Translations under genes and position numbers: made by a program
NCBI GenBank assembly: GCA_013335095.1
Contig: JAAXWF010000001.1
Location: forward strand, 292,268 to 356,267
DNA length: 64,000 nucleotides
From: a candidate division WWE3 bacterium
Lineage (GTDB): Bacteria; Patescibacteriota; 4484-211; GCA-002791395
Direction of reading: 5' to 3'
Shown: piece by piece, positions 2,488-51,616 of the stretch
Position numbering within the stretch: the first letter of the stretch is position 1
Layout: the number at the start of each line of letters is the position of its first letter
Notes under the pieces: model-generated
What the model was told of the DNA's origin: nothing
Database searches by the model: none
The model's input: only the letters and a program-made list of their open reading frames with translations

Positions 2488-3208
2488 AAGCCAAGACTTT
2501 TTAGAAATAATTGATATTAAAGACGGAGTCCTTGTATTAAGCGGAGGTAAGTTCCGTGTGGTTATTGAAGCAACCGCAATCAACTTTGACCTCTTATCCG
2601 AAGATGAACAAAACGCAACTATATTTGCTTATTCTAACTTAGTAAACTCGCTCAACTACCCTATCCAGATTTTAGTCAGAACGCGTCAAGTCGATATCAC
2701 AAATTATTTGAGTTACCTCAAAAAGTATCTTCGGGATCAACCAACCGCAGCATTAAGAGAACAATTACAAGACTACATCGATTTTTGCCAACAGTTGGTT
2801 TTGGAAAATATCGTCTTACAGAAGCGATTCTTTGTTGTTATCCCCTATTGGCAATCATCAACAACAGGACCAAGCACGCCCCAAAAGAAAGCCAAATCCC
2901 CCGGGTTACTTGATGGACTTCCATTAATTGGCAAAAAATCCACCACGCAACCGTTGGTTGATGACACCATTTATTCAGAAGAAGCATTCAAAAAAGCGAA
3001 ACAAAGTTTGAATCAACGGTATGAAGAGGTTCGATGGCAGTTCAAACGTCTCGGGATACAAGTGCGTCTTTTAGGAACCGAAGAGCTAATTCGGTTATAT
3101 TATGAAATACTTAACCCCGAGACTGGTCAAAATAGAGGACTCAAAGACGATTTATATGGATATACCGTACCGATTGTTAACTCGGCACTCGATATCGGAG
3201 AATACTAA
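2471..3208 (+). CDS. Hypothetical protein, T4SS-operon member
   Basis: 245-aa ORF translationally coupled on both sides (its stop TAA is directly followed by the ATG of the VirB4-like gene). Confidence 0.5.
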   Translation: MKLLPKSQDFLEIIDIKDGVLVLSGGKFRVVIEATAINFDLLSEDEQNATIFAYSNLVNSLNYPIQILVRTRQVDITNYLSYLKKYLRDQPTAALREQLQDYIDFCQQLVLENIVLQKRFFVVIPYWQSSTTGPSTPQKKAKSPGLLDGLPLIGKKSTTQPLVDDTIYSEEAFKKAKQSLNQRYEEVRWQFKRLGIQVRLLGTEELIRLYYEILNPETGQNRGLKDDLYGYTVPIVNSALDIGEY

Positions 3209-5454
3209 TGGATAAAATATTAAAACCGCTAAAAGATTTACTATCACCGAAAAAAAACGCCTCAAAAGCGGCTGCTCCAGCTGGCTCTGGGAATGGACCA
3301 AAACCAGCAGTACCAACTTCTGCATCTCTTAAACCAGGTGTGACACCTGCAGCTCCAAATACGCCAGAACTACCAACTCAAACCGATCAGGTTGATCGTC
3401 AACAAATAGTTAAACAAGCCCAATTATTTGCGCGTGGATTAATTGATATTAGAGACATTATCGCGCCAAGTGGTATTGAAGTTGATTTTAATGAGATTAG
3501 AATCGGATCGACCTATTACCGAACATATTTTATCGCAGGATATCCGCGAGAAGTCGGCCCCAACTGGCTTGCTCCGTTAATTAACTTTCCTCAAGCCCTC
3601 GACATTTCGATGTTTTATTACCCAATCGATGCTCGAGACGTGCTCAAAAATTTGCGTCGAAAAATTACCGAGATGCAGACCGAGCTAAACATAGAGTATA
3701 AAGAAGGACGTATTTTAGACCCCGAAGTTCAATTAGCTCTTCAGGACGCAAAATCGTTACAGGATGAGCTTGTTGCAGAGCGGGAACGATTCTTCCAGTT
3801 TGCCTTATACATAACAATACCTCACGAAGACGTAAAACAACTCCATCTTATTTGTAAGCAGGTCGAAAGCATATTAGCCGGTATCCTTCTACTGACTCGT
3901 AAAGCGACTTTACAGATGGACGACGGTTTTAGATCAACCTTACCAATTCATAACGATAAACTCCAGGTCTACCGCAACATGGATACGACATCGATAGCAA
4001 GTACGTTTCCCTTTACTTCAAGTAGTTTAACCAGTGATGAAGGTATCCTGTACGGTATCAATGAGCATAACGGAAGTTTAGTTGTATTTGACCGATTTAG
4101 GATGGAAAATGCAAATTCGGTAGTATTTGGAAAATCTGGTTCAGGTAAAAGTTACACGGTTAAACTTGAAGCAATCAGATACCTACTTCTAGGCACAGAA
4201 ATCATTGTTATTGACCCTGAACAGGAATTCAGAACCCTCAGCGATGTTATTGGTGGAGAGTATATTACCTATGACTTCACCTCAAAAACACGTATTAATC
4301 CATTTGATCTATCTCAAGTGTTTGAAGAAGGAGAAGATCAGCTTGAGACGAAGATCTTAGTTCTTCACTCACTCATGAAACTAATGCTTGGAGATATGAC
4401 CGCTAGCCAAGAAGCGGTGTTGGACCGAGCACTTTTGGAGACGTATCGATTAAAAGGAATATCATCAGATCCAAGCACCCAGCGAAAAGAACCACCACTT
4501 ATGGAAGATTTGTATAAGGTATTTCTTGGAATGGAAGATGAAGACGCCAAAGAACTCTCAAAACGATTGGAAAAATTCGTCATGGGATCGGCTAAAGGAC
4601 TCTTTGACCAGCCGACTAACATCGATATAAAAAATACATTTACCGTATTCGGTATTCGCGATCTAGAAGAAACAATCCGACCGATTGGTATGTTCTTAAT
4701 TCTTGATTATATCTGGACCAGAGTCCGTCGTGACCGACGCAAACGTCTACTCTTCGTCGATGAAGCGTGGATCATGATGAAGAATGCCGATTCTGCTAAC
4801 TTCATGCATTCCCTTGCAAAGCGAGCCCGAAAATATTACCTGGGAATAACCACGATCAGTCAGGATATTGAAGATTTCTTCAACCATGAAAAGGGTTTAG
4901 CAATCATTAAAAACAGTTCCATTCAGGTGCTCATGAAACAATCATCAAGTGCTATAGATAAACTGGCGGATGTCTTTATCCTATCTGAAGGTGAGCAAAA
5001 TCTACTCTTGTCGGCAAACGTTGGTGAAGGATTATTCTTCGCCGGACAAAATCACGTCGCGATACAGATGGTAGCCGGTCTCAAAGAACACGAATTAATA
5101 ACAACCAACCCAGCCGAATTACAACAAATCGAACGGATGAAACAACAACAAAACTCCGATGACCGTATCCGTAAGCTACAAGAACAGGGTCGGTTAACAT
5201 TCCAGACACCAACACAGCCGGATGCCCAACCAGCCGAACAACAAATGACGGATATGACATCGGCTCCAACTCCCGATGCATTAGATCAAAACGCCGGAAT
5301 GCCAGCATCTGATTCTTATGAGGCAGCTCCGACCCAGCAAACTGAAACAGAGATGTCACAAGGTGTTGAGATTACTGATTTCTCCCAAGGAGAGTCGACC
5401 CAACCGTCTCAACCCGAAGCAACGACGTTGCCCGATGATCCATCACAGGTCTAA
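3208..5454 (+). CDS. VirB4/TrbE/CagE-family type IV secretion ATPase
   Basis: 748 aa. Walker A VVFGKSGSGKSYTVK, Walker B RLLFVDEAWIMM, then TISQDIEDF, with a size and domain order typical of VirB4-like conjugation/T4SS ATPases. Confidence 0.75.
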   Translation: MDKILKPLKDLLSPKKNASKAAAPAGSGNGPKPAVPTSASLKPGVTPAAPNTPELPTQTDQVDRQQIVKQAQLFARGLIDIRDIIAPSGIEVDFNEIRIGSTYYRTYFIAGYPREVGPNWLAPLINFPQALDISMFYYPIDARDVLKNLRRKITEMQTELNIEYKEGRILDPEVQLALQDAKSLQDELVAERERFFQFALYITIPHEDVKQLHLICKQVESILAGILLLTRKATLQMDDGFRSTLPIHNDKLQVYRNMDTTSIASTFPFTSSSLTSDEGILYGINEHNGSLVVFDRFRMENANSVVFGKSGSGKSYTVKLEAIRYLLLGTEIIVIDPEQEFRTLSDVIGGEYITYDFTSKTRINPFDLSQVFEEGEDQLETKILVLHSLMKLMLGDMTASQEAVLDRALLETYRLKGISSDPSTQRKEPPLMEDLYKVFLGMEDEDAKELSKRLEKFVMGSAKGLFDQPTNIDIKNTFTVFGIRDLEETIRPIGMFLILDYIWTRVRRDRRKRLLFVDEAWIMMKNADSANFMHSLAKRARKYYLGITTISQDIEDFFNHEKGLAIIKNSSIQVLMKQSSSAIDKLADVFILSEGEQNLLLSANVGEGLFFAGQNHVAIQMVAGLKEHELITTNPAELQQIERMKQQQNSDDRIRKLQEQGRLTFQTPTQPDAQPAEQQMTDMTSAPTPDALDQNAGMPASDSYEAAPTQQTETEMSQGVEITDFSQGESTQPSQPEATTLPDDPSQV

Positions 5455-5495
5455 AAATATTTCACACACAAAGAATCTATGTTATATTAATAAAT

Positions 5496-6197
5496 ATGAA
5501 CCAACGTGCTTTTATGGTCGTTGAAACAGGAATAGTAGCAGTTATTCTCCTGATTTTGGCGACAATATGGTTCGTTAGGTATAGTGCTCCGGTTCCGGTT
5601 TCACCATCGCAAGAGACGCCGCATCAATCGCCTACTCCTACCCTAACATCAATAATAACTAGCGCCCCAATACAAGAAGCCCAAACGCTAGATTTTCCTG
5701 AAAATTACCAATCGGCTTCTTGGACAGTGAATAACGTAGACGAGTTATCATTTCAGCTAAATTGCTTTGATACAAAAAGTCAAAAAATAGTTGATTGCAA
5801 TAGCCCTAAAAAAGGTGAAAAGATGTCAACAACGATTCCTAATATACCCAGCATTGAAGAGGCCCGAGACAAAATTGACAAGATTGGTGAATACTATGTT
5901 TCCGAGTTAACAAAACAAGGCTGGAATCATTACCTGTCTTTTAACGACGTCGATGTTTCATTACCTAATGGCGATGGACCAGCCGCGACAGCGTGGGGAA
6001 TGTTGGGCTACAAAGAACATACAGTGCGTTCTGCGTTCTTCTCGCAAAGCATTGAAGGAATAAGTTGGAATGAAGAAACCCTGGAGCCGATTTGTCCATG
6101 TACCGTTAAAGTTGACATTGAACTTAGTGAAAAAGCCCCCTTTTCACTCCCCCCTATTAGTATGAACAAATTCCCGCAAACATTTTCCGCACGATGA
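5496..6197 (+). CDS. Hypothetical membrane-anchored secreted protein
   Basis: 233 aa with an N-terminal transmembrane helix (VVETGIVAVILLILATIWFV), a P/T/S-rich linker and a Cys-containing C-terminal domain. Confidence 0.45.
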   Translation: MNQRAFMVVETGIVAVILLILATIWFVRYSAPVPVSPSQETPHQSPTPTLTSIITSAPIQEAQTLDFPENYQSASWTVNNVDELSFQLNCFDTKSQKIVDCNSPKKGEKMSTTIPNIPSIEEARDKIDKIGEYYVSELTKQGWNHYLSFNDVDVSLPNGDGPAATAWGMLGYKEHTVRSAFFSQSIEGISWNEETLEPICPCTVKVDIELSEKAPFSLPPISMNKFPQTFSAR

Positions 6198-10161: not shown

Positions 10162-10404
10162 TTATAGGGGACGTGGATTAGTGGAAAACTACGTTACGCT
10201 ATGTTGATATACGCAAAGTGTTGTGGAAACTGTCGGGAAGAGTTTGGGATAGATTGTGGATTATTCACAATCTATAAATATTTATCCACAAAATAAAAAT
10301 ATAATCTACAAACTATCCACAAAATATAAAAAGTTATCCACAATTACAAACTTTGAGATACATTTATTAAAATTACGCCTATGAAATTATTATCCTAAAG
10401 ATGG
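10162..10404. promoter_or_regulatory. Putative oriC: DnaA-box cluster plus AT-rich unwinding region between dnaA and dnaN
   Basis: Perfect TTATCCACA boxes at 10282-10290 and 10334-10342; near-perfect boxes TTATTCACA (10261), CTATCCACA (10313), TAATCTACA (10302), TTGTGGAAA (10221) and TTGTGGATT (10254), followed by an AT-rich tract (aaaatataaaaag, catttattaaaatt). Further boxes lie upstream of dnaA (TGTGGATAA at 11922-11930, TTGTGGAAA at 11847). Confidence 0.7.
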
Positions 10405-17645: not shown

Positions 17646-18221
17646 TTAGCGCGAAGGTCGAAGGACCTCGACCATGATCTGCTCTTTTAGGGCGGTTATC
17701 CCACCCTGCGAGAGCTTCTCGGTGATGAGGTCATGTCCGAGACCTGACCGTGCCGCCGCTGACCTCGCCCTCATCATATCGCCATATTGGCGGATGAGGT
17801 CTTCTACCGGCTCGTAGCCGGTGAAGCACTGGCCGAGCGTCATTGCGAGCAGGTTGGCTGGGATGCCGACCCGACGAGCCTGTATACGAAGGCTTTCCCG
17901 ATACTCACGTTCGGTAAGGTAACCTTCGTCCTCGTCTGGTTTCGGACGATGCCCGTTGAGCCGGTTGGTGCCGGCGAACCAGGCCGCTAGTTGTGCAATC
18001 TCTGGCTCGGTGGCTGCCCGTTTCGGGTCAGTTTTTCGAGTCAAAGCACACAGCTGAGCGGCGAGCTCGATGAACTCCCGGTCAACGATTATCGTGACCG
18101 GCTTGGGCTGGGCGATCGGCCGAGCCGGTCCCGACAACCCTTGACGCTTGAGCAGTTCGAGCGTTTTGGTTTTTCCGCCTCTAGCACCGTTATGTTGGTG
18201 CTTCCGTTGGGTGGTGGTCAA
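17646..18221 (-). CDS. Hypothetical protein (GC-rich island gene A)
   Basis: About 65 % GC. AAGGAGG RBS 5 nt upstream of a TTG start at 18221 (the ORF track extends to 18287). A consensus sigma70 promoter TTGACA-N18-TATAAT lies on the minus strand at 18258-18287. The product is Ala/Arg-rich with no recognised domain. Confidence 0.5.
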   Translation of the reverse strand: MTTTQRKHQHNGARGGKTKTLELLKRQGLSGPARPIAQPKPVTIIVDREFIELAAQLCALTRKTDPKRAATEPEIAQLAAWFAGTNRLNGHRPKPDEDEGYLTEREYRESLRIQARRVGIPANLLAMTLGQCFTGYEPVEDLIRQYGDMMRARSAAARSGLGHDLITEKLSQGGITALKEQIMVEVLRPSR

Positions 18222-18257
18222 GCCGACCTCCTTTGTTTTCAAAGAACTCGTTTTTAT

Positions 18258-18287
18258 ATTATAGGATAAAGATGTGTGTGTTGTCAA
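18258..18287 (-). promoter_or_regulatory. Consensus sigma70 promoter for island gene A (TTGACA N18 TATAAT on minus strand)
   Basis: Reverse complement of 18282-18287 is TTGACA and of 18258-18263 is TATAAT; the RBS and TTG start follow about 35 nt downstream. Confidence 0.5.
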
Positions 18288-18393
18288 AACGAAAAAACCC
18301 GGCCCTTTTTTCGCTCCCGAAGGAGAAAAATAGGTACCGGGTTGTGAAGAAGGGGACTGTGGTTAAGCCCCCTCCCTCTTCCGACTTAGCGAA
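18288..18393 (-). repeat. Structured repeat element copy 1 (UUCG-tetraloop hairpin nested in ACCCGG/CCGGGT stem) directly after stop of island gene B
   Basis: Shares about 90 nt with 19408-19504: ACGAAAAA(A)CCCGGCCCTTTTTTCGCTCC...GGAG...AGGTACCGGGT..GTG...CCGACT.GCGAACTA.GCC. The inner stem loop is CUCC-UUCG-GGAG on the minus-strand RNA. Confidence 0.55.
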
Positions 18394-19059
18394 CTAGGCC
18401 GCGGCCAGCTCGTGCTCGTGGATCACGGGCATCGGGCAGGTGCGCACCGGCTCCGGGGCCTTCTTGGCGGCGATGGCCGCCTCGAGGGCCGAGAAGTCGA
18501 CCTCACACTCCTCCTTGAGGATGCGGGTGACCTCGTTGGTGTCGATGCCAGCATCGGCGGCCTGCTTGCGCAGCTTGGCCAGGAGAGTGTGGCGGTGGTT
18601 GTCCGCCTTCTTCTTGGCCTCGGCCTTTTCGACCTCGAGCTCGGCGCGGCGCTCGATGAGCGCGCGCTTGGCCAGGCGGAACTCGTCGTCCCAGCCTCGG
18701 GCAATGATCTGCCCGAAGTTGGCCTTGCCCATCCCGAGTTCCTCGGCCTGCTTAAGCAGCGACCGCTTGATCTCGATGAGCTTGGTGTGGCGCAGCTTGG
18801 CCTGGTAGCGCTGCTCATAGAGCTTTGCCACCTCGGCGAGGGCTTCGGCGTTCTGCGCCTGGGCGACCTCGTCGACGCGGTACTCGATGCCGCGGTCGTG
18901 GCTCCAGTTGAGTAGCGCCAGCTTAGCCTTGAGCAGCATCAACTCCTCGAACTCCATCTCGCTGCCGTTCTTGCTCGTGAGCCCAGCGCGGCGGGCGCGG
19001 GGGCCGATGTCGGCGCGGAGACGGATGAGCTGGCTCTGCTGGCTGTTGTCGGTAGTCAT
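18394..19059 (-). CDS. Hypothetical coiled-coil protein (GC-rich island gene B)
   Basis: 221 aa at about 68 % GC; GAGGAG RBS 8 nt upstream of ATG. Charged/Ala-rich heptad segments (KRALIERRAELEVEKAEAKKKAD). Confidence 0.5.
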   Translation of the reverse strand: MTTDNSQQSQLIRLRADIGPRARRAGLTSKNGSEMEFEELMLLKAKLALLNWSHDRGIEYRVDEVAQAQNAEALAEVAKLYEQRYQAKLRHTKLIEIKRSLLKQAEELGMGKANFGQIIARGWDDEFRLAKRALIERRAELEVEKAEAKKKADNHRHTLLAKLRKQAADAGIDTNEVTRILKEECEVDFSALEAAIAAKKAPEPVRTCPMPVIHEHELAAA

Positions 19060-19228
19060 GGGAGATTCTCCTCATGCATGTGGGGCATCTGCCCCATATC
19101 TTGACCACTAGGTCTCCATAAGACTGGGCGAGCCCTTTTTAGGGGGCGGCCCATCATTCCGACGGGTTGAGGGCGTGAGCCCTCTCCGAACCCCCGAAGG
19201 GGTCCCAAGTTACCCCGCCAGGCGGGTT

Positions 19229-19282
19229 ACTATGGGTGAACCAACTTGTCGATCTGTATCAACCGGTTAATTCACCCATAGT
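19229..19282. repeat. 12-bp perfect inverted repeat ACTATGGGTGAA...TTCACCCATAGT with 30-nt spacer, upstream of island gene B
   Basis: Read directly from the sequence. A second copy of the same arm sequence with a different spacer lies at 20366-20431 upstream of gene C. Confidence 0.6.
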
Positions 19283-19407
19283 TGTTCGCATTTACTTTGA
19301 AAAGTACGGTGTAATAACGTGTGTGTTATTACGGCAAACGGTTCTTATATTATAGCGAAATAGGGGATAAAAGTCAATTGCTATGGGGTAGTTGTGCGTA
19401 GCGTATA

Positions 19408-19504
19408 ACGAAAAACCCGGCCCTTTTTTCGCTCCTTGCGGAGGAATTAGGTACCGGGTGGTGGTGGGAGTCCCGGAGGACTCCCGCCGATCCGACTGTG
19501 CGAA
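19408..19504 (-). repeat. Structured repeat element copy 2 (GCAA-tetraloop version) directly after stop of island gene C
   Basis: Same element as 18288-18393; the inner hairpin here is CUCC-GCAA-GGAG on the minus strand, a compensatory GNRA loop in place of UUCG. Confidence 0.55.
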
Positions 19505-20179
19505 CTACGCCACCTTCTTGCCCTTCTTGCCACCGCCCTGCTTGTGCAGGGGCTGCTCGTTCGAGGGCCCCTTGGGGTTGGGGTTGCCGACGTTGGTGCG
19601 GCCACCCGGGGCGCGGTGCTGGGCGCTGGTGGCCTGCTTGGCCTCGATCTGGTCGAGCCAGTCGGTGAACAGCGCGTAGTTGCGCTGCGCGACGGCCTCG
19701 GCGAGGCGGGTCTCGCGGGTGCGGGTGTCGATGCCCATCTTCTTGGCGCGGAGGAGCAGGAAGCCGCGGTAGGTGCGGTCCTGCTGCATCTCGCGGATGC
19801 GCTCGTCGCGCTCCGTGGCCTCGGCCTCGAAGGTGCTCTTGGCGACCGCCTGCTGGGCGGCCTTAGCCTCGAGCTGGACAGCCTGCTCGCGCTTGGCGAT
19901 CCGGGCCTTGTAGCCCTTCATGCCGTTGGCGCGCTGGCGGAGCTTCTTGGCGTCCTCGGGGCAGATGCCCACGAGGTCGAAGAAGCTCACGTCGTTCAGG
20001 CCGACCGACGTGGTGAGCTCGAACAGCTCGAACGCCGCGTCGAGCGCGGCCTGGTCGATGCTGTGGAGCCTCATGACGATCTTCGCCCGGTCGGGGTTGC
20101 CGACGTTGGGGACGATCCCGAGCTTGCTGGCGCGGCTGACGTTGCGGGCGCGGAGCTCGAGGGTGCTGTTCGTCGTCAT
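19505..20179 (-). CDS. Hypothetical protein (GC-rich island gene C), distant paralog of gene B
   Basis: Start taken at MTTNSTLELRARN (the ORF track begins 16 codons earlier). Its N-terminus shows limited similarity to gene B (TT.S..L.LRA....RA..G). About 66 % GC. Confidence 0.45.
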   Translation of the reverse strand: MTTNSTLELRARNVSRASKLGIVPNVGNPDRAKIVMRLHSIDQAALDAAFELFELTTSVGLNDVSFFDLVGICPEDAKKLRQRANGMKGYKARIAKREQAVQLEAKAAQQAVAKSTFEAEATERDERIREMQQDRTYRGFLLLRAKKMGIDTRTRETRLAEAVAQRNYALFTDWLDQIEAKQATSAQHRAPGGRTNVGNPNPKGPSNEQPLHKQGGGKKGKKVA

Positions 20180-20365
20180 GGTAGGGCCGTTCCTTTCTGC
20201 GGGGGCGAGAAGCCCCCCTAGAGCCACCTGATGTGGTGGCCTCCTGGGCTAGGGACACAGCGACGCGCTGGTCCCTCCTGGGGTAAATGGTGGGTTTAAC
20301 CCCACCGGTGCGGCAAAGGTTGCCGCTCCACCCAACCGGGCGTGGGTTTCCCACGTGCCGGCCAT

Positions 20366-20431
20366 TTATGGGTGAATAGAGGCGCCTAGGAGGGCCCCAA
20401 TAAAGGGGTAAGCACCTCTGTTCACCCATAA
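20366..20431. repeat. Inverted repeat TTATGGGTGAA...TTCACCCATAA (about 44-nt spacer) upstream of island gene C
   Basis: Same arm sequence as the inverted repeat at 19229-19282; its inner part carries an additional imperfect palindrome (AGAGG.GC / GCACCTCT). Confidence 0.55.
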
Positions 20432-20597
20432 AAGCAGGAAAAAGGAACGAAAGGACTACCAATAAACGTAGTTCTTAAGTCGTGATGAAAATGTGCAAAG
20501 GGTATCTTATAAAAGTACCCCGTAAGCCCTGATAAGAGCTTACGTAATTATTATAGGGCATATTAGTGCCGAAAGTCAAGAGTTATGGGGTATAGAA

Positions 20598-27453: not shown

Positions 27454-27603
27454 AACATTTGTTATTTATGGCGATAGGATAGGGGATGTAGGGCGATTTG
27501 ATCTCGTTTATAAAAACTGTGCGGGAAATATGCGGGAATTAAGTAAGAAATGACCGGAAACTTTATAAAGCTTCCGGTCTTAACTATTGTCAACCTCAAC
27601 ATC

Positions 27604-31123: not shown

Positions 31124-32932
31124 ATGCCTCGTATTCATCAATTACCAGAGCAACTTGTGAATCAAATCGCCGCCGGCGAGGTGGTTGATCGTCCTTCTTC
31201 TGTGGTTAAAGAACTGGTTGAGAATTCGCTTGATGCTGGTGCTTCTCGAATCGAAATCTATATAGAAAAAGGTGGAAAAAAGTTGATTCGCATTGTTGAT
31301 AACGGAAACGGAATGGAGCGGGAAGATCTAGAAGGTTCTGTAAAACGACATTGGACCTCTAAAATAAATAATCTTGAAGATTTGCATAATATCCAATCGT
31401 TTGGATTTAGGGGTGAAGCATTGGCGAGTATTGCTTCGGTTAGTAAATTTGAAATTCGATCTCGCCAATCAAATTCCGATGAAGGATGGAGTTTAACAAT
31501 GGGTGAGAATGGTGCTCCTATCATTAAGCCAATCGGTATGCCAAGTGGAACCGAGATCATTGTTGCAGAGCTCTTTTATAACGTACCTGCTCGGCTGAAT
31601 TTCTTAAAACAAGATGCAACCGAGGGGTCTCATATCCAAGAATTAGTGTATCAATTGGCATTGATTAACCCGAATGTCATGTTTGTACTGCATAAAGATG
31701 GACGCGCGGTGTTTCGATCACCGGGCGGAAATGAGATTAGACCCTTACTCAATGCGGTTCTCGGCGAATCGTTAGCGGGTCAGATGGTTGCTATTCATAA
31801 CGAGAATCCTCATGTTGAAGTGAGTGGGTGGGTCGGCAAACCTGGAACAGGAAGTGCAAGTCGTGCCCGGCAGTATGCATTCGTTAACGGGCGCATTGTT
31901 GATAATCGGATTATTTGGAGTGCGGTTGCCGAAGGATATGGTTCGGTCTTAGGACGTCATGAAAAACCTCAGTTTGTTATTCGGATTGATATGGCACCTC
32001 ACCTCGTTGATGTGAATGTTCATCCTCAAAAGAAAGAGATAAAGTTTAGTAGCCCTCAGTTGGTTTTTCAACTTATTCGCCAGGCGATTATTAATGCGTT
32101 TTCTCAGTTACGAGAGCAATTACCTGAACCAACGATCACTCCTCAATCAACGTCAGAAGATGCTCAGGCACCCACACCCGTTCCGAAAACCTTTTTCCCA
32201 CCAGTGCCATATCCATCGTATTCAGCAAACTCAAAAGTACGAGAGGTTGCTGATCCAACCCAACCAACCTCTAAACCGATATTTTCTCCGTCAATGATTA
32301 GTGCGTCACAGTCTGTTCCCGAACAATCGTTTGAATTAACGAAGCCACTGCGTGTGTTCCAGTTATTGGATCTTTTTATTTTTGAAGAAAAAGAAGACGG
32401 TATTGTTGTATATGATCAGCATGCAGTTCATGAACGCGTGTTGTATGAAAAGTTTACTAATCAATATTTATCCGAAAAACAAAATCGACTAATTCAACCG
32501 CTGCTCGTACCCACGCTGATTGAAGTGTCGCCACTGGAACTCTCATTGTGGGAGCAAAGTCGTGACCTGTTGTTTGAGTTAGGTTTTGAAACAGAGCTGA
32601 TGGGTGAGGGGACTATTCGGATCAATTCGGTTCCATCGGTTCTTGCCGGAAATATGATCGGTGTTCTTTTAAAAGAATTCCTTCAGGATCTTTCGGATTC
32701 GGATGATGTTGGTGAATCAACCGTAAAGGGAATTGATATGCAGACACATCGACGCTTGGCATATCTGTCGTGTCGAAGCGCGATAAAAGCTGGTGATCGA
32801 TTAAAGCCCGAAGAGATTCAACGTCTTATTCGTGATTTTCATGGAACGACAATTAATTTTACGTGCCCACATGGACGTCCTGTTCGTATAGAGTTTTCCC
32901 GACGCGAGATGGAGAAGTGGTTTAAGCGATGA
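31124..32932 (+). CDS. mutL: DNA mismatch repair protein MutL
   Basis: GHKL ATPase N-terminus (QIAAGEVVDRPSSVVKELVENSLDAGASRIEIYIEKGG...IVDNGNGM); 602 aa; the C-terminal dimerisation domain contains CPHGRP. Confidence 0.85.
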   Translation: MPRIHQLPEQLVNQIAAGEVVDRPSSVVKELVENSLDAGASRIEIYIEKGGKKLIRIVDNGNGMEREDLEGSVKRHWTSKINNLEDLHNIQSFGFRGEALASIASVSKFEIRSRQSNSDEGWSLTMGENGAPIIKPIGMPSGTEIIVAELFYNVPARLNFLKQDATEGSHIQELVYQLALINPNVMFVLHKDGRAVFRSPGGNEIRPLLNAVLGESLAGQMVAIHNENPHVEVSGWVGKPGTGSASRARQYAFVNGRIVDNRIIWSAVAEGYGSVLGRHEKPQFVIRIDMAPHLVDVNVHPQKKEIKFSSPQLVFQLIRQAIINAFSQLREQLPEPTITPQSTSEDAQAPTPVPKTFFPPVPYPSYSANSKVREVADPTQPTSKPIFSPSMISASQSVPEQSFELTKPLRVFQLLDLFIFEEKEDGIVVYDQHAVHERVLYEKFTNQYLSEKQNRLIQPLLVPTLIEVSPLELSLWEQSRDLLFELGFETELMGEGTIRINSVPSVLAGNMIGVLLKEFLQDLSDSDDVGESTVKGIDMQTHRRLAYLSCRSAIKAGDRLKPEEIQRLIRDFHGTTINFTCPHGRPVRIEFSRREMEKWFKR

Positions 32933-33176
32933 CTTATAGTGATTGATGTCTTTGGTGTTTTTTGTTAACATAGTGTATCTATATTGAGTAATTTCCGTCA
33001 CGTGATTCCGAATTAGTTTGACGTTGAGTTGTTAACGATGAGGCTTAACAATTGAGCGTCCCGCTAATCTGGTATTGGGCCAGACAGGGAATCCTGTGAA
33101 TTTTACAGGATCGGAGCCAGGTATCGTGCTTGGTTTTTAATGAACCCTTTTGGGTTACAACGTTAGGAGGAGTCTA

Positions 33177-33653
33177 ATGGACGCCATGCATGAGGTTGGG
33201 GCGTGGAAGTTAGAGGTATTCCACGTAGCGACGGTAGATGGTCAATGTGTAAAGGTTCCTGGTCCGGATTGGGCGGGGCGCATCTGCTTCCCAGATCCGG
33301 TTGGGCAGATTCGCAATGCTGCATTCGGGATGGATGTTCCTGAATGGGCTGGAAGTAGTGTGCCGCTGATCTTCGTTACGGAGGTTATTTGGCGGGCAGC
33401 TCATGTTTTCACCATCGAAGAGATGTTTGCGATTCTTCGGGAGGGGGAATACAAAGAGTTGATTGAGTATCTTTGCCGGGCTTATCGGCCCGAGGGAAGC
33501 GCCTTTACGTTGGAGGACATTCAAAGGCATGGGTTATGGGCCTATGTCGCGGGTGGGCAATACGGGTATAGTCCCGAATTTGCTCGCGTCGGGTGTATAT
33601 TAGGCAAGTTCGTAACATGTTGGGACCTCTTTCGGTTCCGCTATACACAGTAG
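33177..33653 (+). CDS. Hypothetical protein (GC-rich ORF)
   Basis: AGGAGG RBS 7 nt upstream of ATG at 33177. About 57 % GC with no recognised domain. Confidence 0.45.
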   Translation: MDAMHEVGAWKLEVFHVATVDGQCVKVPGPDWAGRICFPDPVGQIRNAAFGMDVPEWAGSSVPLIFVTEVIWRAAHVFTIEEMFAILREGEYKELIEYLCRAYRPEGSAFTLEDIQRHGLWAYVAGGQYGYSPEFARVGCILGKFVTCWDLFRFRYTQ

Positions 33654-33654
33654 G

Positions 33655-33876
33655 CTTCACTCAGCCGTAAATGAGTGAGTACTCTGCACATGCCAGCCTT
33701 TTAGAGCGCCGCTGGGCGTAAATGGCTTTCCGGCTAGTAACCGGAACCGTGAAATAGGCCTAAGAAGCCTTCACGGGCGTAAATCCGCAGCTGCGAATGC
33801 AGGTGCGGAGTACTTTTTGTACGAATCGATTATTTACAGAAGGAGGGTGCGGTGAACGCATCTAACCAAACATGAA
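33655..33876 (+). ncRNA. Candidate structured RNA / 3-prime UTR element with three GCGTAAAT-containing stem-loops
   Basis: Hairpins TCACTCA-gccgtaaa-TGAGTGA, TTCCGG-ctagtaa-CCGGAA and CCGCAGCTGC-gaat-GCAGGTGCGG; the motif (G)CGTAAAT occurs three times (about 33668, 33715 and 33780). It ends at an intrinsic terminator. Confidence 0.35.
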
Positions 33877-33910
33877 GCGGGATGACTTTGTATGTCGCCC
33901 GCTTTTTTTT
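33877..33910 (+). terminator. Rho-independent terminator
   Basis: GCGGG-atgactttgtatgtc-GCCCGC followed by TTTTTTTT. Confidence 0.7.
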
Positions 33911-33940
33911 ATTATTTACCGATCTGTATAATATAAAAAG

Positions 33941-34999
33941 ATGGACAGTGCTTCTTCGATTTATAAAATAATTCAGCAGTATGATAACTTTGTATTACCT
34001 TTGCATGTAAGCCCAGATGGAGACTCTGTTGCTTCAACTTTGGCAATGCGTGAAGCTTTACTATCTTTGGGAAAACGGGTCCGAGTTACGTGCGACGACA
34101 AATTGGGTATCGAGGCTGATATCGATTTTATCTTGTCGCCAGATTCAATAATTCAAAAAGAAACTCCATTACCTCTAGATATCCCGTCTGTGTATATATT
34201 TATGGACGGGAGCGAATTATACCGGTTTACTCAAACATCTATTGATTTAAATCACCCCCATATCCAGCGAGTCATAAATATAGATCACCATCCAAAAGGA
34301 GATATTGCTGATTTTATCGATAAAAGCGGAAAGGGCGCATGGGTAAATCAGGATGGGTTAACCGCAAATACGCAGGTATTGCTAAATCTGTTTAAATCCT
34401 GGGACATTACGATTACTGATCGTATCGCTAAATTATTAATGTATGGAATTTATTCTGATACCGAAGGATTACAAAATTCTGACCTTCAAACTCAAACTTT
34501 TACCGATTTAGCAACATTAACTGAGCTTGGAGCGGATTGGCATGAGTTTGTGGTTAACGTTACGTGGAACGTTAGCCTAGATACGATGATGTTATTAAAG
34601 GAATATCTATCAAGACTTAATCTGGACGAAGAGTACGGGTTTGCGTGGGTCGTATTACCGTATTGGATTCTCGCGCAATATGATGAATCCAATATTGATT
34701 TTGACTACATTAAACATCGATGTTTACGAGTCATAAAAGGAATCCGTTTTGCCGCTGATATCAAAGAAAAAGAAGATGGGCGAATCACTGTTTCTTTGCG
34801 TGCCCGAACACCCGATATCGATCTCGGAGAATTGGCTAAAAAAATAAGCGCAAAAGGTGGGGGGCATCCAGGAGCTGCTGGTGCAATTATTGAAGGTATG
34901 ACATTGGTCGAAGCCGAAGATCATATTGTGGATGCTTCACGCGAATATTTATCTCGAAAAGGCTTTGTAAAAAATCCACAACCCAAATATTTGGTATAA
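33941..34999 (+). CDS. DHH/DHHA1 phosphoesterase (NrnA-like oligoribonuclease/pAp phosphatase)
   Basis: DHH motifs HVSPDGDSVAS and INIDHHP, and the DHHA1 motif GGGHPGAAGA; 352 aa. Confidence 0.7.
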   Translation: MDSASSIYKIIQQYDNFVLPLHVSPDGDSVASTLAMREALLSLGKRVRVTCDDKLGIEADIDFILSPDSIIQKETPLPLDIPSVYIFMDGSELYRFTQTSIDLNHPHIQRVINIDHHPKGDIADFIDKSGKGAWVNQDGLTANTQVLLNLFKSWDITITDRIAKLLMYGIYSDTEGLQNSDLQTQTFTDLATLTELGADWHEFVVNVTWNVSLDTMMLLKEYLSRLNLDEEYGFAWVVLPYWILAQYDESNIDFDYIKHRCLRVIKGIRFAADIKEKEDGRITVSLRARTPDIDLGELAKKISAKGGGHPGAAGAIIEGMTLVEAEDHIVDASREYLSRKGFVKNPQPKYLV

Positions 35000-35054: not shown

Positions 35055-35465
35055 ATGTCGGATCCAATGCAGAAGCTGGAGCCTTTGGCTCGAGTTAACT
35101 GGTCGGAAGTCCCTGTCGAAGTGGTCGCTGCCTGTGTCAACATGGCGATAACCCGTATCCGGGGGCTCCACCCGGGTTTTAACGAGGGATTCAACGCGAT
35201 CTCTATTCCAGAAGATCCAAAAGATCTTGCGGGGTGGGAAACTGCTGTAGAGCAGCTGACCACCTGGGCAGAATCGCTTAGTCCAGGTCTGGACTTTGCT
35301 GACGCAGTGGGGCTTGTTCTACTAGCCTGCATGGACGTCGCTGCTCAGCGTGGCGGTGTAGCGATGTTTATAAATCTGACCATCGCAGTCGGATCCTGCA
35401 ATGAGGAACAGGCTGGGGTGTTCGCTTCGGCGTGCGTCTCCAAGCTTTTTCTGTACTTGCGGTAG
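35055..35465 (+). CDS. Hypothetical protein (GC-rich ORF)
   Basis: AAGGAGG RBS upstream of ATG at 35055. About 58 % GC. Followed by the terminator GGGAGGGTTT-attaaa-AACCCTCC-TTTTT at 35500-35529. Confidence 0.45.
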   Translation: MSDPMQKLEPLARVNWSEVPVEVVAACVNMAITRIRGLHPGFNEGFNAISIPEDPKDLAGWETAVEQLTTWAESLSPGLDFADAVGLVLLACMDVAAQRGGVAMFINLTIAVGSCNEEQAGVFASACVSKLFLYLR

Positions 35466-35563
35466 CCATTTCGAGTAAGTCGTTCATAATTTAAATTAGC
35501 GGGAGGGTTTATTAAAACCCTCCTTTTTATAAATCATTCTAATGTGACGATGGCACTTTTTCG

Positions 35564-37174: not shown

Positions 37175-37297
37175 TAGATAGTAGTCATTCTAATCTATTT
37201 TAATGATTTGTTGAGGTGGAAACGATTTGATACTATACGGGAGCTGTTAATAGGTTCTTCACCATCGGGTGAAGACTATTTGAGTGGAGGTGGCCGT

Positions 37298-38026
37298 ATG
37301 GATACGACAATGTCGTTGCTACCTGTCGGTTTCCCGTTCATTCCCGTATCGGATGGTTCTACCCTGGCCTTGAGTCAATCCGCTCGGCTACAAGCCCTAT
37401 TGGGGGCTGGCGTCGTGGTGCGGTTAGCTGATGATGTATATCAGCACGGCTCTGTTTATCGGATCGATCACCCAGAACTGATCGGATGTGAGGATGATTG
37501 GATCCTCATGGCATGTGTTGAGCAGATGTATATGCCGGGGCGCTTGGCTGCGGCAAACAATCTGTTCATCGTCTCAGCTGGTAGGTCAGGGTATTGTCCT
37601 ACCGATGAGGAGTCGCCTGCCCTTGCGGATGACGAACTGTTTTGTGAGCAGGCTTCGGATGGTACCTGCCGGCGGTTTAAGATCTTGGCCCAGCCCGAAC
37701 ACATGCCCGACTGGCTGGCGACGGCATATCGTCGTCAGCTGAGTGCGTTTACCGTAAGGGGATTTCGTATCTTTGCTCTCTCGTCCAATAATGAGTCTCG
37801 TTTCACGGTCGTGATGCGTTGCGGTACGAAATTCGAACGGGATATGTTCCTGCATGCAATCCGGTATTTTACCGGCATGCTGGATGTTCGGATTGTTAAT
37901 CAGGACTACCTAGAATCGGGTGCGGTGAATATGATCATCGTCTCCCTTTCGGGGTTTGATAATAATCTTCGAATCCTAATTAATAAGATTCGGGATGCGT
38001 TCTTTTACGATATCGTGATAATGTAA
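37298..38026 (+). CDS. GC-rich paralog family A, member 1 (hypothetical)
   Basis: Start at MDTTMSL with a GGAGGTGG RBS (the ORF track starts at 37208). Shares HPEL...W.L.AC.EQ...PGR.AA.N.F.V, MPDWLATAYRRQ, GFRIFA and RDAFFYD motifs with members 2 and 3. About 58 % GC. Terminator at 38051-38085. Confidence 0.55.
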   Translation: MDTTMSLLPVGFPFIPVSDGSTLALSQSARLQALLGAGVVVRLADDVYQHGSVYRIDHPELIGCEDDWILMACVEQMYMPGRLAAANNLFIVSAGRSGYCPTDEESPALADDELFCEQASDGTCRRFKILAQPEHMPDWLATAYRRQLSAFTVRGFRIFALSSNNESRFTVVMRCGTKFERDMFLHAIRYFTGMLDVRIVNQDYLESGAVNMIIVSLSGFDNNLRILINKIRDAFFYDIVIM

Positions 38027-38389
38027 GGATCACGATTCGTTGGTATAAACCCGGCCGTCTACCCTAAAGTAGGCGGCCTTTTTTGTTATACTAGCTTCCT
38101 TCGGGTGCGACGGCGGAGAAACTGTGTGGGAATGGATACTCCTGATGGATCTTACAACGGTATTGCCAGCGGATATTCCATTTGTATTTGTTTGCTCGTG
38201 TATGCCGATCGATCGGGTATTGTGTTTGTGTCGGTATATTTCCGATGCGTACTTTTACAATGTTCGATGGGTGTAACGTACAAATTTTACCGTCTAATTA
38301 ATTTAGACGATACTATGTCCTATAGTTCTGGTATAATTGATTGTGCTAATTGGGCAAGTGGAGATTCGTTGATACGAAAGGGGTTTCGT

Positions 38390-39118
38390 ATGTCGGAGGC
38401 GACTCTGTTGCCAGAAGGGTGTCCGTTTCGGATGACGCTTGGGAATCACGGTTTTACCCGTGAGCAGCTTGAGCAGCTCGATGCCCTTGTTGCGACAAGT
38501 GTTGTTGCCGGCCCATTTGGGGCTATGTCTAGCACCTACCAGTACTACTACGTCGATCATCCTGAGCAGCTCGGGGTGGAACACGAGTGGCTTGTTAAGG
38601 CTTGTATCGATCAGTTCTTTGATCCTGGTCGGCAGGCCGCGACTGATAACTGGTTTGCAGTCGGCCGTGAAAGAGGCCAGTGCCTGCCCACTGCGGAGCA
38701 GTGGCCCGATCTCGAGCGTCCGGAGATTGTGGCCGAACAACGGGACGTCGGCCACAGCACCCTCTATCGGATAGCTGTTGCGCCGGATCTGATGCCGGAG
38801 TGGTTGGCCACGGCATTTCGTGTCCAGGTGAGTGATGGGGAACTCCGAGGGTTTCGGATCTTGGCTACCCAGTCAGATCCTCAGGGGCGTCCCCAGATCA
38901 TCATCTACACGACTTCACCCTATATGAGGAATCTTTTCCTCGCCGCTTGCCGATATTATTCGGCGCAAATGGGGATACCGGGGCCGTTTCTTGTAGGTCA
39001 GGATCAGAACTCTCGTGAATATTATGCGGCGATCCAGTCGCATGAGTCACTGGAGGTCGTCCGGCCGATGTGGGAGAGGGTGCGCGACGCCTTCTTCTTC
39101 GAACTTAAGATGGTGTAG
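38390..39118 (+). CDS. GC-rich paralog family A, member 2 (hypothetical)
   Basis: Start at MSEATLLPEG, preceded by the conserved leader GGGGTTTCGT-ATG-TCGGAGGCGACT (the ORF track starts at 38105). Motifs HPEQLGVEHEWLVKACIDQ, MPEWLATAFRVQ, GFRILA, RDAFFFE. Followed by the terminator GGCCGCC-tgaaatat-GGCGGCC at 39141-39178. Confidence 0.55.
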   Translation: MSEATLLPEGCPFRMTLGNHGFTREQLEQLDALVATSVVAGPFGAMSSTYQYYYVDHPEQLGVEHEWLVKACIDQFFDPGRQAATDNWFAVGRERGQCLPTAEQWPDLERPEIVAEQRDVGHSTLYRIAVAPDLMPEWLATAFRVQVSDGELRGFRILATQSDPQGRPQIIIYTTSPYMRNLFLAACRYYSAQMGIPGPFLVGQDQNSREYYAAIQSHESLEVVRPMWERVRDAFFFELKMV

Positions 39119-39252
39119 TTCGTCGCTGTCGACTAAACACGGCCGCCTGAAATATGGCGGCCCTTTTCTTTTTTTTTTGAAATAACCCATAGTTTTTGAT
39201 ATACTTACCGTACCGTAATTCGGCTTATGGATTATACGGAAGGGGATTTCGT

Positions 39253-40038
39253 ATGACGGAGGCAACTATGTTGCCGGCGCTGCCGGAAGGAATGGTTATT
39301 CGGTTTGCATTGCAGCCGAATGATCCCGAATACCCGGAGCTCTCTGCGGATATGGAAGCGGCGCTTGAAAATCTCTTCAACTGGGATGTCGTCAAGCTCT
39401 CATCCGTTGTGCGGTCAGGGAGTCGGCCGATGCTGTCATGCTATGTGGGCAGATCGGATCTTGGATTCCCGCAATGGTTGTACGAGGAGGCGGTTCGCCA
39501 GCTTGGCCTGATTGGCCGGCGAGTCCAGTTGACAAACTGGTTGTGGGTTGGGCACACCGAAGGGTGTGTCTGGCCCAGCAATGAGCAGTTCGCCGAGCTT
39601 CATCAGTTGCTGGATGGCGGCATCGTCCGAGAGGACCTGCCACTTGAGCATCGTTGGCGCTATCACGTCCGCGATGCAAGCCGACTGCCGGAGTGGTTTA
39701 TCAAAGCCCACCGGCAGCAGTGCTCTCAGGGGCGGGATTTCAGCATTCAGCTTCATCTACCCAGCATCGAGGTTGGGCAGGGTGCCATGCTGACATTTCG
39801 CGGTGGTTTGACCGAAGAGCTCCATGCGATTCTGCGGGTGGTCGAGTACCATTCGCGAAAGGTGGGGCTCAACGCAACTCGAACGCGGTTCGAGATTATG
39901 GAGCGTCCAGGGATGAGTAAGATCATCGTCTGGGAACTCGTGTGTTACGGGTCTGAAGACCTGGTCGCGTCCCTGCGGCAGCTGGCCGAGGCCATCTCGG
40001 TAGCGTTCTACTACGACGTGGTCGTGGTAGAGCCGTAA
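39253..40038 (+). CDS. GC-rich paralog family A, member 3 (hypothetical)
   Basis: Start at MTEATMLPALPEG, preceded by the leader GGGGATTTCGT-ATG-ACGGAGGCAACT (the ORF track starts at 39196). Motifs LPEWFIKAHRQQ and VAFYYDVVVV. An identical terminator copy lies at 40067-40094. Confidence 0.55.
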   Translation: MTEATMLPALPEGMVIRFALQPNDPEYPELSADMEAALENLFNWDVVKLSSVVRSGSRPMLSCYVGRSDLGFPQWLYEEAVRQLGLIGRRVQLTNWLWVGHTEGCVWPSNEQFAELHQLLDGGIVREDLPLEHRWRYHVRDASRLPEWFIKAHRQQCSQGRDFSIQLHLPSIEVGQGAMLTFRGGLTEELHAILRVVEYHSRKVGLNATRTRFEIMERPGMSKIIVWELVCYGSEDLVASLRQLAEAISVAFYYDVVVVEP

Positions 40039-47176: not shown

Positions 47177-47253
47177 GGGCGCGTAACTCAGTTGGTTAGA
47201 GTATCAAGCTTATACCTTGAAAGTCCCTGGTTCGAGTCCAGGCGCGCCCACCA
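47177..47253 (+). tRNA. tRNA-Ile with anticodon UAU (ATA-decoding), CCA encoded
   Basis: Manual fold: acceptor GGGCGCG/CGCGCCC, D-arm ACTC-AGTTGGTTA-GAGT, anticodon stem TCAAG/CTTGA with loop CTTATAC (anticodon TAT), T-arm CCTGG-TTCGAGT-CCAGG, discriminator A, CCA. Confidence 0.7.
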
Positions 47254-47622
47254 GTTTTTTAGATTATCGGTTTTATCGTTATTCATTTTGACCATTTTCG
47301 TTTGACTCCTTATTTCTCTCAATGTAAAAGCATAATTTCTAGTTATTAGCTAAAAGTACTATTTTAAATTCATAGTTAACTGCGATCACTGTAAAATCAT
47401 TTCTATAGCGGGTTTCTATTACTATGCGTGTGATTTGGCTATCTTTGACTATTATGTCTTAAGTTGTCTTATTTGGTGAAACATTATGCTGGCTTTTGAC
47501 TAATACATAGGACTAGGGCGTTTTCTAGGCCCTTTTGTTTGTTTTGAAATAGACTAGGGGGTGGTTGAAGTCTGTTAATGTTGGATTTGATAACAAGGTA
47601 TAATAGGATGTGTTTCTGCTTT

Positions 47623-48519: not shown

Positions 48520-49302
48520 ATGGCTACTATTCGAGGACGGAGTCTTGGACGGCTAAAGTTTGCCGAAGTCGAAGAGCTTTGCCCGATCCGGTGCGTGATT
48601 CACGACCAGCGGGTGACCCGTGATCAGATCGTTCATCCCGCTCCGGCTGAAGGGCGACTGATCAACAACCGAGGCTTCGCGTATGGCGAACTGACGAGCT
48701 CAGTTCAGGGGCCATTTCTGGTTCTGAATCATCCGGGTCTCTACAAGGGTACCAGGATGGTTCATTATGGCATGCACCAACAGCCCCTGAATTTCGAGGC
48801 TATTGAGGGGTATGAGATCCTCGAGGGTGATGTTCCCTCATTCGATCTCGGCATGCTTGAGCCTCGGCCGAATCGTCCCGCCGATGTGCGGGGGTGGAGC
48901 CTGTATGCCTACCTCACCGAGCGGTTCGGCAAGCATGACGCCGTGCTTGTCACCTGGCACAAGCCGGATGGCCGCCTCTACGACAGAGGTTTTTGGCCTA
49001 CCTATTTTCCGGTGACGCCGTCCGGGTTCGATCAGATTGCGGCACGTGAGTTGTTGGGGGAAAGCTATGTGCATAACCCCTACGGCCAAATGCCTGTGTC
49101 TTTGATCGAGCTGCTGATTGGCGGCCAGCTCGAGTACGTTGTACCTGGGAATCCGATCCCAGGAGATGTCCCGGCGACAGTCCAGATCTGGCCCAAAGCC
49201 AGACGGCTGGAGCGCTCGGATGCGTCCGTGATATGGGTGCAAGTCTCGGCCCACGCGCGGATGTTTGATGACATGGCTCCGGGAGCCATTAGTCTCGCCT
49301 AA
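48520..49302 (+). CDS. GC-rich paralog family B, member 1 (hypothetical; no zinc ribbon)
   Basis: AGGAGGTAGCC-A-ATGGCT start context shared with members 2-4. N-terminus MATIRGRSLGRL...ELCP and core LNHPGLYKGTRMVHYG are shared with the other members. About 60 % GC. Terminator at 49321-49350. Confidence 0.55.
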   Translation: MATIRGRSLGRLKFAEVEELCPIRCVIHDQRVTRDQIVHPAPAEGRLINNRGFAYGELTSSVQGPFLVLNHPGLYKGTRMVHYGMHQQPLNFEAIEGYEILEGDVPSFDLGMLEPRPNRPADVRGWSLYAYLTERFGKHDAVLVTWHKPDGRLYDRGFWPTYFPVTPSGFDQIAARELLGESYVHNPYGQMPVSLIELLIGGQLEYVVPGNPIPGDVPATVQIWPKARRLERSDASVIWVQVSAHARMFDDMAPGAISLA

Positions 49303-50629: not shown

Positions 50630-51616
50630 GTGGCTATCAGAGGTCGCTATCTTGGTCATTCCCGCTTGTTCGATCTTGCGGCGTTAACTCCGCTCGAATG
50701 CGAGTTACGCTATGCACTGCCGTCAGACCCGGAAGCCTTGCTTCCATCAGACGCCGACAGTCCTGATCCGTACATTCCGGGAACGTTGACCCTCGATTTT
50801 GAGGGTGAGGGACTGGACATGTTGGTGTTACGCCATCCTGGACTTAAAGGTGGCGAACTGCGTGTTCCATTTGGTGATCGCGAGAATCCGCTGACCCATT
50901 ACGGGGTTCAAGTGTTTGCTTTGATCGAAGGCACTTTCCGCAGCACCTGCCCGATGTGCCATGCTCCCAGTGTGGTCCCTGAACAGCGCTTTTGTGAGGC
51001 GTGCGGTGCGAGCCTCGTGGTCTCATTTGGACGACGACGGCAAACCGCAGTGAGTAGCATCATGCCGTGGGGGACGTCCGACATCGACTATGAAGTGGGT
51101 GCAGGGCGAGTTCTGGGACCGAACATTACTGTTGCCGCTGTTCCCCTCAAGGTTAAAGCATCCCATGGGGATGCGTTACCGCCTGAACTCATCAAATTTG
51201 AGGCTCACCTGGTGTATCGGGCGCTGAAAAAGCGAGTCGGTCACCACCTGGCGATGGGTGTGGTATGGCGAACCGAAAATGGTAGCGATGATGAGGAACT
51301 GTGTTTTCGTCCGTTGCTTTTCGCCATGGATGTGGGCCTGGCAGCGGACCTTGTATCACAAGGTTCTCATGTCGTTCGTCGATATCGGGTGCTACCGTAT
51401 TCCGATATCAATGAGGCGCTCGTTGCTTTGCTGGTTGATGATTCTCGCCAACAGCACCAGCTTGCCAGTGTCGATGGGAGACCAGCCGTGCTGGAAGTGT
51501 TTGAGTCAGTGATTTCGTTGAATTCACAACTGGAATATCCGGTTGTTTCGTTGATTATTTCAGCAAACGCTCACCCAGACGAGCTCGCTCGACTTGGGCT
51601 TTTGTTTGCTGACTAA
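50630..51616 (+). CDS. GC-rich paralog family B, member 3 (one zinc ribbon; hypothetical)
   Basis: GTG start in the same AGGAGGTAGCC context. Motifs MAIRGRYLG, RHPGLKGGELRV, CPMCHAPSVVPEQRFCEACGASL, RYRVLPYSDINEALVALLV...ELARLGLLFAD. Terminator at 51638-51664. Confidence 0.5.
   Translation: MAIRGRYLGHSRLFDLAALTPLECELRYALPSDPEALLPSDADSPDPYIPGTLTLDFEGEGLDMLVLRHPGLKGGELRVPFGDRENPLTHYGVQVFALIEGTFRSTCPMCHAPSVVPEQRFCEACGASLVVSFGRRRQTAVSSIMPWGTSDIDYEVGAGRVLGPNITVAAVPLKVKASHGDALPPELIKFEAHLVYRALKKRVGHHLAMGVVWRTENGSDDEELCFRPLLFAMDVGLAADLVSQGSHVVRRYRVLPYSDINEALVALLVDDSRQQHQLASVDGRPAVLEVFESVISLNSQLEYPVVSLIISANAHPDELARLGLLFAD

Follow-up and report, generated by a model that had tools for sequence, protein, structure and literature searches.

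The 64,000 nt of DNA from a candidate division WWE3 bacterium that were analysed here (the window) carry at 33655-33910 a non-coding region whose structure is biased to the + strand. The region ends in a canonical intrinsic terminator, falls outside the known RNA families and is specific to its lineage. We tentatively regard it, with a confidence a little short of even, as the 3' end, dense in hairpins, of a transcription unit specific to its lineage, which would act in cis in termination and insulation and in the protection of the 3' end. Its sequence is new and belongs to a single genome so far, while its kind, be it a terminator-bearing structured 3' UTR or a candidate sRNA, is an ordinary one. 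WWE3 is a lineage of the CPR (Patescibacteria). To our knowledge, the regulatory RNA biology of CPR bacteria is almost unexplored, and the region, if functional, would join a very small number of candidates for structured RNAs that are confined to a CPR lineage.

Structure of the region 33655-33910

On the + strand mutL (31124-32932) is followed by a GC-rich ORF, the region 33655-33910, an NrnA-like gene (DHH/DHHA1, 33941-34999; nrnA below) and a second GC-rich orphan ORF, beyond which an RNase H-like gene and RNase HII lie on the minus strand. The first ORF ends with a TAG at 33651-53, in agreement with the stop at 33653 given in an earlier note on this DNA, and the region begins 1 nt past this stop. 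The same note had called the region structured and non-coding, and had named membership of a longer gene after frameshift correction as a finding that would tell against it. Stop codons were present in all six frames, and no periodicity of GC content with codon position was seen. A frameshifted or hidden coding region was rejected on these grounds, tblastn having also revealed no similarity to the ORF that occupies the same place in the related locus L001.

The + strand of the region reached a minimum free energy (MFE) of -106 kcal/mol against -78 +/- 4.7 kcal/mol for 200 dinucleotide shuffles (z -5.9), none of which folded as well, and most of its helices had pair probabilities of 0.8-0.99. 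The claim that it is structured was thus amply borne out. The minus strand folded less strongly (z -4.4), which is probably due in part to 8 G-U pairs in the + strand fold that become A-C mismatches on the opposite strand. Sliding windows of 200 nt gave z values near 0 for the flanking housekeeping genes mutL and nrnA.

All stems that had been listed previously were located on the + strand: TCACTCA/TGAGTGA (33657-63 / 33672-78), TTCCGG/CCGGAA (33728-33 / 33741-46), AGGC/GCCT (33756-59 / 33767-70), which is extended by CGTGAA 33748-53 / TTCACG 33770-75, and CCGCAGCTGC / GCAGGTGCGG (33785-94 / 33799-808), which has 1 G.G mismatch. The count of at least four stem-loops held, and was incomplete in that further helices were found, namely a composite one (33695-33727), a weak one (33815-41) and GGGTGCG/CGCATCT (33845-63). 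The terminator that had been proposed is likewise present at 33877-33910, its stem GCGGG/CCCGC (33877-81 / 33898-902) being followed by T8 at 33903-10.

The resulting + strand hairpins were numbered from the 5' end. Hairpin H1 (33656..33679) has an 8-bp stem and the loop GCCGUAAA, a pair probability of 0.91 and, when folded alone, a z of -3.4. The composite hairpin H2 (33695..33727; AGCC/GGCU, UUU/AAA and GCGCC/GGCGU) was by itself no better than shuffles (z -0.9). H3 (33728..33746) consists of UUCCGG/CCGGAA around the loop CUAGUAA (pair probability 0.94) and H4 (33747..33776) of CCGUGA/UCACGG and AGGC/GCCU around the loop CUAAGAA (pair probability 0.92-0.99; z -4.4). H5 (33784..33818; 6+4 bp, -18.8 kcal/mol, z -5.8) is followed by AGUAC and U5; it was picked up by a scan for terminator-like elements, and H5 with its U5 is a candidate for a weak upstream terminator. 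H7 (33845-63; GGGUGCG/CGCAUCU) gave a z of -4.0 and a pair probability of 0.99. The canonical intrinsic terminator (33875..33910) has a 7+4-bp stem at 33875-33904 (-17.5 kcal/mol, z -5.7, pair probability 0.98-0.99) and U8 at 33903-33910. As is typical of a rho-independent terminator, this G+C-rich stem-loop runs straight into the U tract on the + strand after a gene.

Besides these local hairpins an alternative long-range helix was predicted. P1, whose 5' strand GUACUCUGCAC (33679..33689, + strand) pairs with 33803-33813, is an 11-bp helix formed by the inverted repeat I3, GTACTCTGCAC 33679-89 / GTGCGGAGTAC 33803-13. It shares its 3' strand with H5 and competes with the outer stem of that hairpin (33784-33809), so that P1 and H5 are mutually exclusive. 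P1 closes a multi-helix junction surrounding H2-H4, and the fold that contains it is the MFE structure once the terminator is omitted (-86.7 kcal/mol, z -5.1). Further downstream an element at 33841..33875 (+ strand) opens with a Shine-Dalgarno-like AGGAGG (33841-46), which lies partly within H7. A GUG at 33852 starts a mini-ORF of 7 codons, putative as it is read from the sequence, of which the UGA (33873-75) touches the terminator stem.

The proposed transcription unit around the orphan gene

With the stop at 33651-53 and the terminator at 33875-33910 on the same + strand, the region lies directly after a stop codon and before a terminator. This position fits the 3' UTR that the earlier note had offered as one of its options, and the strong Shine-Dalgarno sequence of the gene that ends 1 nt before the region counts for it as well. 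We infer from this arrangement a unit that would run from a promoter (~32943-71) through a structured leader and a 158-aa orphan gene into 33655-33910. In the + strand RNA, H1-H5 and H7 would form a row of stable stem-loops, six or seven hairpins in all. The unit would have tandem ends, H5 with U5 serving as a weak terminator ahead of the strong one with U8 at 33875-33910. These terminators would keep transcription from reaching the separate nrnA promoter, and the stacked hairpins would guard the 3' end of the orphan mRNA against 3'-to-5' exonucleases. The 3' UTR may also give rise to a stable RNA of ~250 nt, which would be either a by-product or a regulator.

Against a plain tail stands the size of the region, which measures 255 nt where a terminator requires about 40 nt. 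Other orphan genes of the window have a short tail (35466-35530), as has the orphan gene in the same slot of L001 (90 nt only), which also speaks against the cis-acting reading. The repeated GTAAAT/ATTTAC described below and the competition between P1 and H5 hint at a role beyond passive stabilisation. Likewise the five copies of this hexamer, the exclusive pairing of P1 and H5 and the mini-ORF with its Shine-Dalgarno-like sequence together hint at a more specific activity.

Two known kinds of 3' element can be set beside the region. The enterobacterial CpxQ, SroC and DapZ are sRNAs that derive from a 3' UTR and share the intrinsic terminator of the parent mRNA. Like these the region contains stable stem-loops and extends from a stop codon to the rho-independent terminator of the gene. 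Unlike them it is unusually long and hairpin-dense, and it is unrelated in sequence and family. We know of no work that has established Hfq-type sRNA biology in CPR bacteria. The REP/BIME extragenic palindromes of Escherichia coli stabilise the upstream mRNA and occur in many copies per genome. The stacked hairpins 3' of the ORF could similarly block 3' exonucleases, whereas neither the 64-kb window nor the related loci contain a further copy of the region.

Upstream of the orphan gene a candidate promoter was found on the + strand at 32943..32971, with TTGATG (32943-48) as the -35 and TAACAT (32966-71) as the -10 element, separated by 17 nt that end in TGT. It was not flagged by a consensus promoter scan. 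The pattern TTGAYN, 17 nt ending in TGT and TAnnnT could be followed by eye in alignment A1 directly behind the stop codon of mutL in the window, in L168 and in L001. Next comes a structured 5' leader (33018..33165, + strand) made up of one long hairpin and two short ones; the segment 33000-33199 that contains it folded with a z of -5.2. L168, in which MutL is 69% identical, is a closer relative than L001 and has a homologue of the leader at 2963-3110. RNAalifold on the leaders of the window and L168 gave 44 pairs, with 5 compensatory and 9 one-sided compatible changes and 0 broken pairs. The leader matched no Rfam family, either in the window or in L168, and occurred in a single copy according to covariance model R1. 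Its resemblance to a TPP riboswitch (CUAAUCUGG...GCCAG..AGGGAA) was dismissed as no TPP match was obtained in the window or in L168. The leader is a conserved structured RNA and may be a new cis-regulatory leader. Since it has been kept with compensatory changes in L168, the unit is apparently a maintained transcript in at least one sister lineage. As a conserved structured RNA the leader is currently better supported than 33655-33910, which is a single-genome candidate in a unit of which the 5' leader shows compensatory changes.

The ORF itself is identical to NCBI protein HGA91_01750, which a candidate division WWE3 bacterium encodes on a contig of 536 kb. In the ORF listing it starts at 33150 (33150-33653). 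Because an AGGAGG lies 5 nt before the ATG at 33177, this ATG is likely the start, which gives a protein of 158 aa (33177..33653, + strand). The protein retrieved only itself from 5.8 billion clustered proteins and from an exhaustive HMMER search over 1.84 billion representatives, and had no match in Pfam, NCBIfam, PHROGs or PADLOC. An AlphaFold model from the single sequence was unusable (mean pLDDT 38). Its coding sequence alone is mildly structured (z -1.9) and the whole unit 32990-33912 has a z of -8.1, from which it follows that most of the structure belongs to the two UTRs.

Type III toxin-antitoxin RNAs (ToxI) offer a further likeness, since the region too is non-coding, contains a recurring short motif, adjoins the gene of a small protein and ends in a terminator. 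In contrast to ToxI it has no tandem units according to TRF, it lies 3' of the gene and not 5', and the protein matched no toxin or defence model. Direct repeats of ~30-40 nt beside an endoribonuclease toxin, by which such a system is recognised, were absent here, and no PADLOC or Pfam match was obtained.

Other readings of the region

The GC content between 33100 and 33900 is about 0.51-0.55, against 0.37-0.42 in the flanking genes, and that of the region itself is 0.51, against about 0.38-0.40 in the flanks. This would suit a piece of GC-rich DNA, horizontally acquired or decaying, that arrived with the orphan gene and is a remnant with no function, its hairpins being incidental or relics of terminators or UTRs of the donor. 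The whole cassette is lineage-specific, the gene is without homologues, L001 lacks the region, and two stretches beside GC-rich orphan ORFs (19060-19504 and 20228-20597) are as rich in hairpins or richer. Decay would not be expected to leave a fold with a z of -5.9, clean helices of 6-10 bp and G-U pairs confined to the transcribed strand. Moreover, the region resembled neither the L001 ORF nor any protein fragment; specifically, descent from the 129-aa ORF of L001 was rejected because the local alignment did not exceed shuffles. We consider such a remnant unlikely, though a reading to be reckoned with.

Rather doubtful, too, is an independent sRNA gene of ~250-300 nt, trans-acting or protein-binding, with a promoter of its own in the last part of the orphan ORF, the same terminator and the P1-closed H2-H4 junction as its functional core. 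The compact junction fold closed by an 11-bp helix would suit such an RNA, as would the similar loops of H3 and H4 (CUAGUAA and CUAAGAA) and the repeated hexamer, which is commoner than in shuffles. A weak promoter candidate, TGTATATT at 33594-33601, resembles the candidate nrnA promoter TGTATAAT in its build; it has no -35 element, and TGTATAWT occurs at chance level in the window (4 observed versus 6 expected). The reading also has against it that the searches revealed no homologue, no other copy and no Rfam match.

In these searches an Rfam scan of the 64-kb window at gathering thresholds returned 3 tRNAs only. Permissive Rfam scans of 32900-34000 and 33640-33920 yielded nothing beyond weak terminator look-alikes (12-18 bits, E > 1). 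The impression from the letters that the region is unlike RNase P RNA, SRP RNA, tmRNA and 6S RNA was therefore upheld, the Rfam scan having matched none of these nor any other family. ARAGORN found no tmRNA in the window, again only 3 tRNAs. Short resemblances to 16S rRNA (GGGCGTAAA, GGAGGGTGC, GCGGTGAA.GC and CCGTAAA) were discounted, as the SSU models were silent on this short region even at E <= 10. No second copy was detected in the window (blastn and covariance model) or in L001, and TRF reported no tandem array; a repeat element was rejected on both counts. A phage or plasmid origin was rejected as well, since blastn against phage and plasmid records and a protein scan of viral contigs yielded nothing similar. 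Scans anchored on the motif gave 8 loci in the viral collection, at least 120 in the metagenomes and 37 in the genome collection, from which the source genome itself is absent. None of these loci showed likeness to the region by blastn or nhmmer, and blastn, nhmmer and the covariance model identified them as unrelated repeats or chance matches. With covariance model R2, built on the local hairpins of the region, the best foreign match had 12 bits and an E of 0.24, and none was accepted. One of the viral loci, L003 (IMG/VR 3300009076_000303), has at ~5400-5520 about seven 16-nt units GGGCGTAAATCTKCAA in an iteron-like tandem, an array that shares only a 10-mer with the window and is otherwise unrelated.

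The repeated motif was examined in its own right. The region had been described as having three hairpins bearing GCGTAAAT, with three loop-adjacent copies of (G)CGTAAAT. Three copies of CGTAAAT are indeed present, but the exact GCGTAAAT occurs in two only (33716 and 33777) and the remaining copy reads CCGTAAAT (33665-72). The copy at 33665 lies inside the H1 loop, whereas the other two are not in loops: copy 2 (GCGTAAAT, 33716-23) forms the 3' side of a small stem in H2, and copy 3 (GCGTAAAT, 33777..33784, + strand) lies in the junction of H4 and H5. As the motif is found in three different structural contexts, the emphasis on GCGTAAAT-bearing hairpins was overstated. Any 7-mer occurring three times or more was found in 0.7% of shuffles of the region versus about 6% of real 256-nt windows; this repetition is only moderately unusual. 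The shorter GTAAAT or its reverse complement ATTTAC occurs five times (33667, 33718, 33779, 33832 and 33914) in 271 nt, where 0.27 copies are expected. Any hexamer was present at least five times in 1/3000 shuffles and in about 2% of real windows. A 12-nt direct repeat (family D4) has its first copy, ATTATTTACAGA, at 33829..33840 on the + strand, where it holds ATTTAC, and its second, ATTATTTAC, at 33911-22 just 3' of the terminator.

The five (S)SGTAAAT sites, three in one orientation (33665-33784) and two inverted (33832 and 33914), could in principle form an array at the level of the DNA, bound by a protein as an operator or nucleoprotein site. The excess of the hexamer over expectation, spacings of 51, 61 and 53 bp, which are near whole helical turns, and the fifth copy past the terminator and outside the predicted RNA are in its favour. 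The last site overlaps the spacer of the nrnA promoter, and for this reason the array could be an operator. Unrelated viral contigs such as L003 bear GGGCGTAAAT in iteron-like tandem arrays. On the other hand, the flanks of the five copies have little in common past the hexamer, some 2% of real windows match the excess, the strand bias of the RNA folding is left unexplained and no candidate binding protein was identified. Such an array we hold to be improbable.

Taken together, the closing helix P1, the three-hairpin junction and CGUAAAU might define a new class of structured RNA that forms a module with the 5' leader and the 158-aa protein in one WWE3 lineage. In such a module the RNA would partner the orphan protein, for example by binding a protein or by sensing a ligand. 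We rate this as a long shot.

It remains to consider nrnA. A candidate promoter of this gene, TGTATAAT (33925-32, + strand), lies 3' of the terminator and ends 8 nt before the ATG at 33941. In L001 (4897-4915) TGTATAAT likewise ends 8 nt upstream of the ATG of the nrnA orthologue, and neither nrnA (33925-33941 in the window) nor the L001 orthologue has a Shine-Dalgarno sequence. This suggests a leaderless nrnA mRNA with a promoter of its own. A local alignment of the promoter stretch with L001 scored 26, against 18.2 +/- 2.3 for shuffles; since the best shuffle scored 29, the likeness is only suggestive. Because TGTATAAT lies 3' of the terminator and is conserved in L001, the region would be outside the predicted nrnA transcript, upstream of it, and is probably not the leader of nrnA. 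The layout of a long structure, a terminator and a gene, with the closing helix and the mutually exclusive pairings of P1 and H5, is reminiscent of riboswitch and attenuator leaders, and the stop of the mini-ORF adjoins the terminator stem. A cis-regulatory leader or attenuator of nrnA, in which a ligand, or else translation of the mini-ORF, would override the terminator 30 nt before the gene, is nevertheless very improbable: the predicted promoter past the terminator is common to L001, no comparable leader precedes the nrnA orthologues in L001 and L171-L174, no potential antiterminator complementary to the 5' arm of the terminator was seen upstream, and no riboswitch family was matched in Rfam.

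The mutL-nrnA slot and other GC-rich orphan genes

The place between mutL and nrnA was compared among relatives, this WWE3 lineage being thinly sampled. In L001/L002, where NrnA is 54% and MutL 60% identical, mutL is followed by an orphan ORF of 129 aa, which is GC-rich and unrelated, and a spacer of 90 nt with a single terminator leads on to nrnA. L001 is the nearest relative that covers the slot, and no counterpart of the 255-nt region was found in it. The L168 contig stops 241 nt past mutL, some 25 nt short of the point where the start codon would be expected. In L174 nrnA directly follows mutL, in L171-L173 a GreA-like gene lies between the two, and in L169, L170 and L175 mutL is followed by other neighbours. 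Descent of the orphan proteins from a diverged GreA was rejected as no similarity was found. Because mutL and nrnA are adjacent or separated by other genes in the relatives, the orphan cassette including the region is an insertion. The variable slot extends over 32933-33940 in the window, 4346-4912 in L001, 5768-6205 in L171 and 5747-5844 in L174, all WWE3-like genomes. The orphan ORFs that occupy it in the window and in L001 are unrelated in sequence. The region thereby points to a small mutL-nrnA insertion slot with a fast turnover.

It also points to GC-rich orphan genes with hairpin-rich flanks in the source genome. The ORFs that have no Pfam match are systematically GC-rich (GC 0.51-0.61, against ~0.38-0.42 in housekeeping genes) and lie in the window at 17646-20462, 33177-33653, 35055-35465, 37208-40038, 48520-49302 and 50630-51616; the same was seen in L001 (4433-4822 and 6034-6342). 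Two stretches, 19060-19504 (z -6.3/-6.0 on the two strands) and 20228-20597 (z -8.1/-9.6), have denser hairpins than 33655-33910. They flank a GC-rich orphan ORF beside a tRNA-Arg, and each contains the inverted pair TATGGGTGAA...TTCACCCATA; they may be the border of a genomic island or the end of a mobile element. Among the intergenic regions that were scored for folding, which covered the window up to about 48 kb (the last at 47254-47622), 10162-10404 on the + strand (z -4.0) and 27454-27603 on the minus strand (z -4.8) also folded strongly. Finally, a tRNA-Ile with the anticodon UAU, an uncommon means among bacteria of reading AUA, is encoded at 47177-47253.
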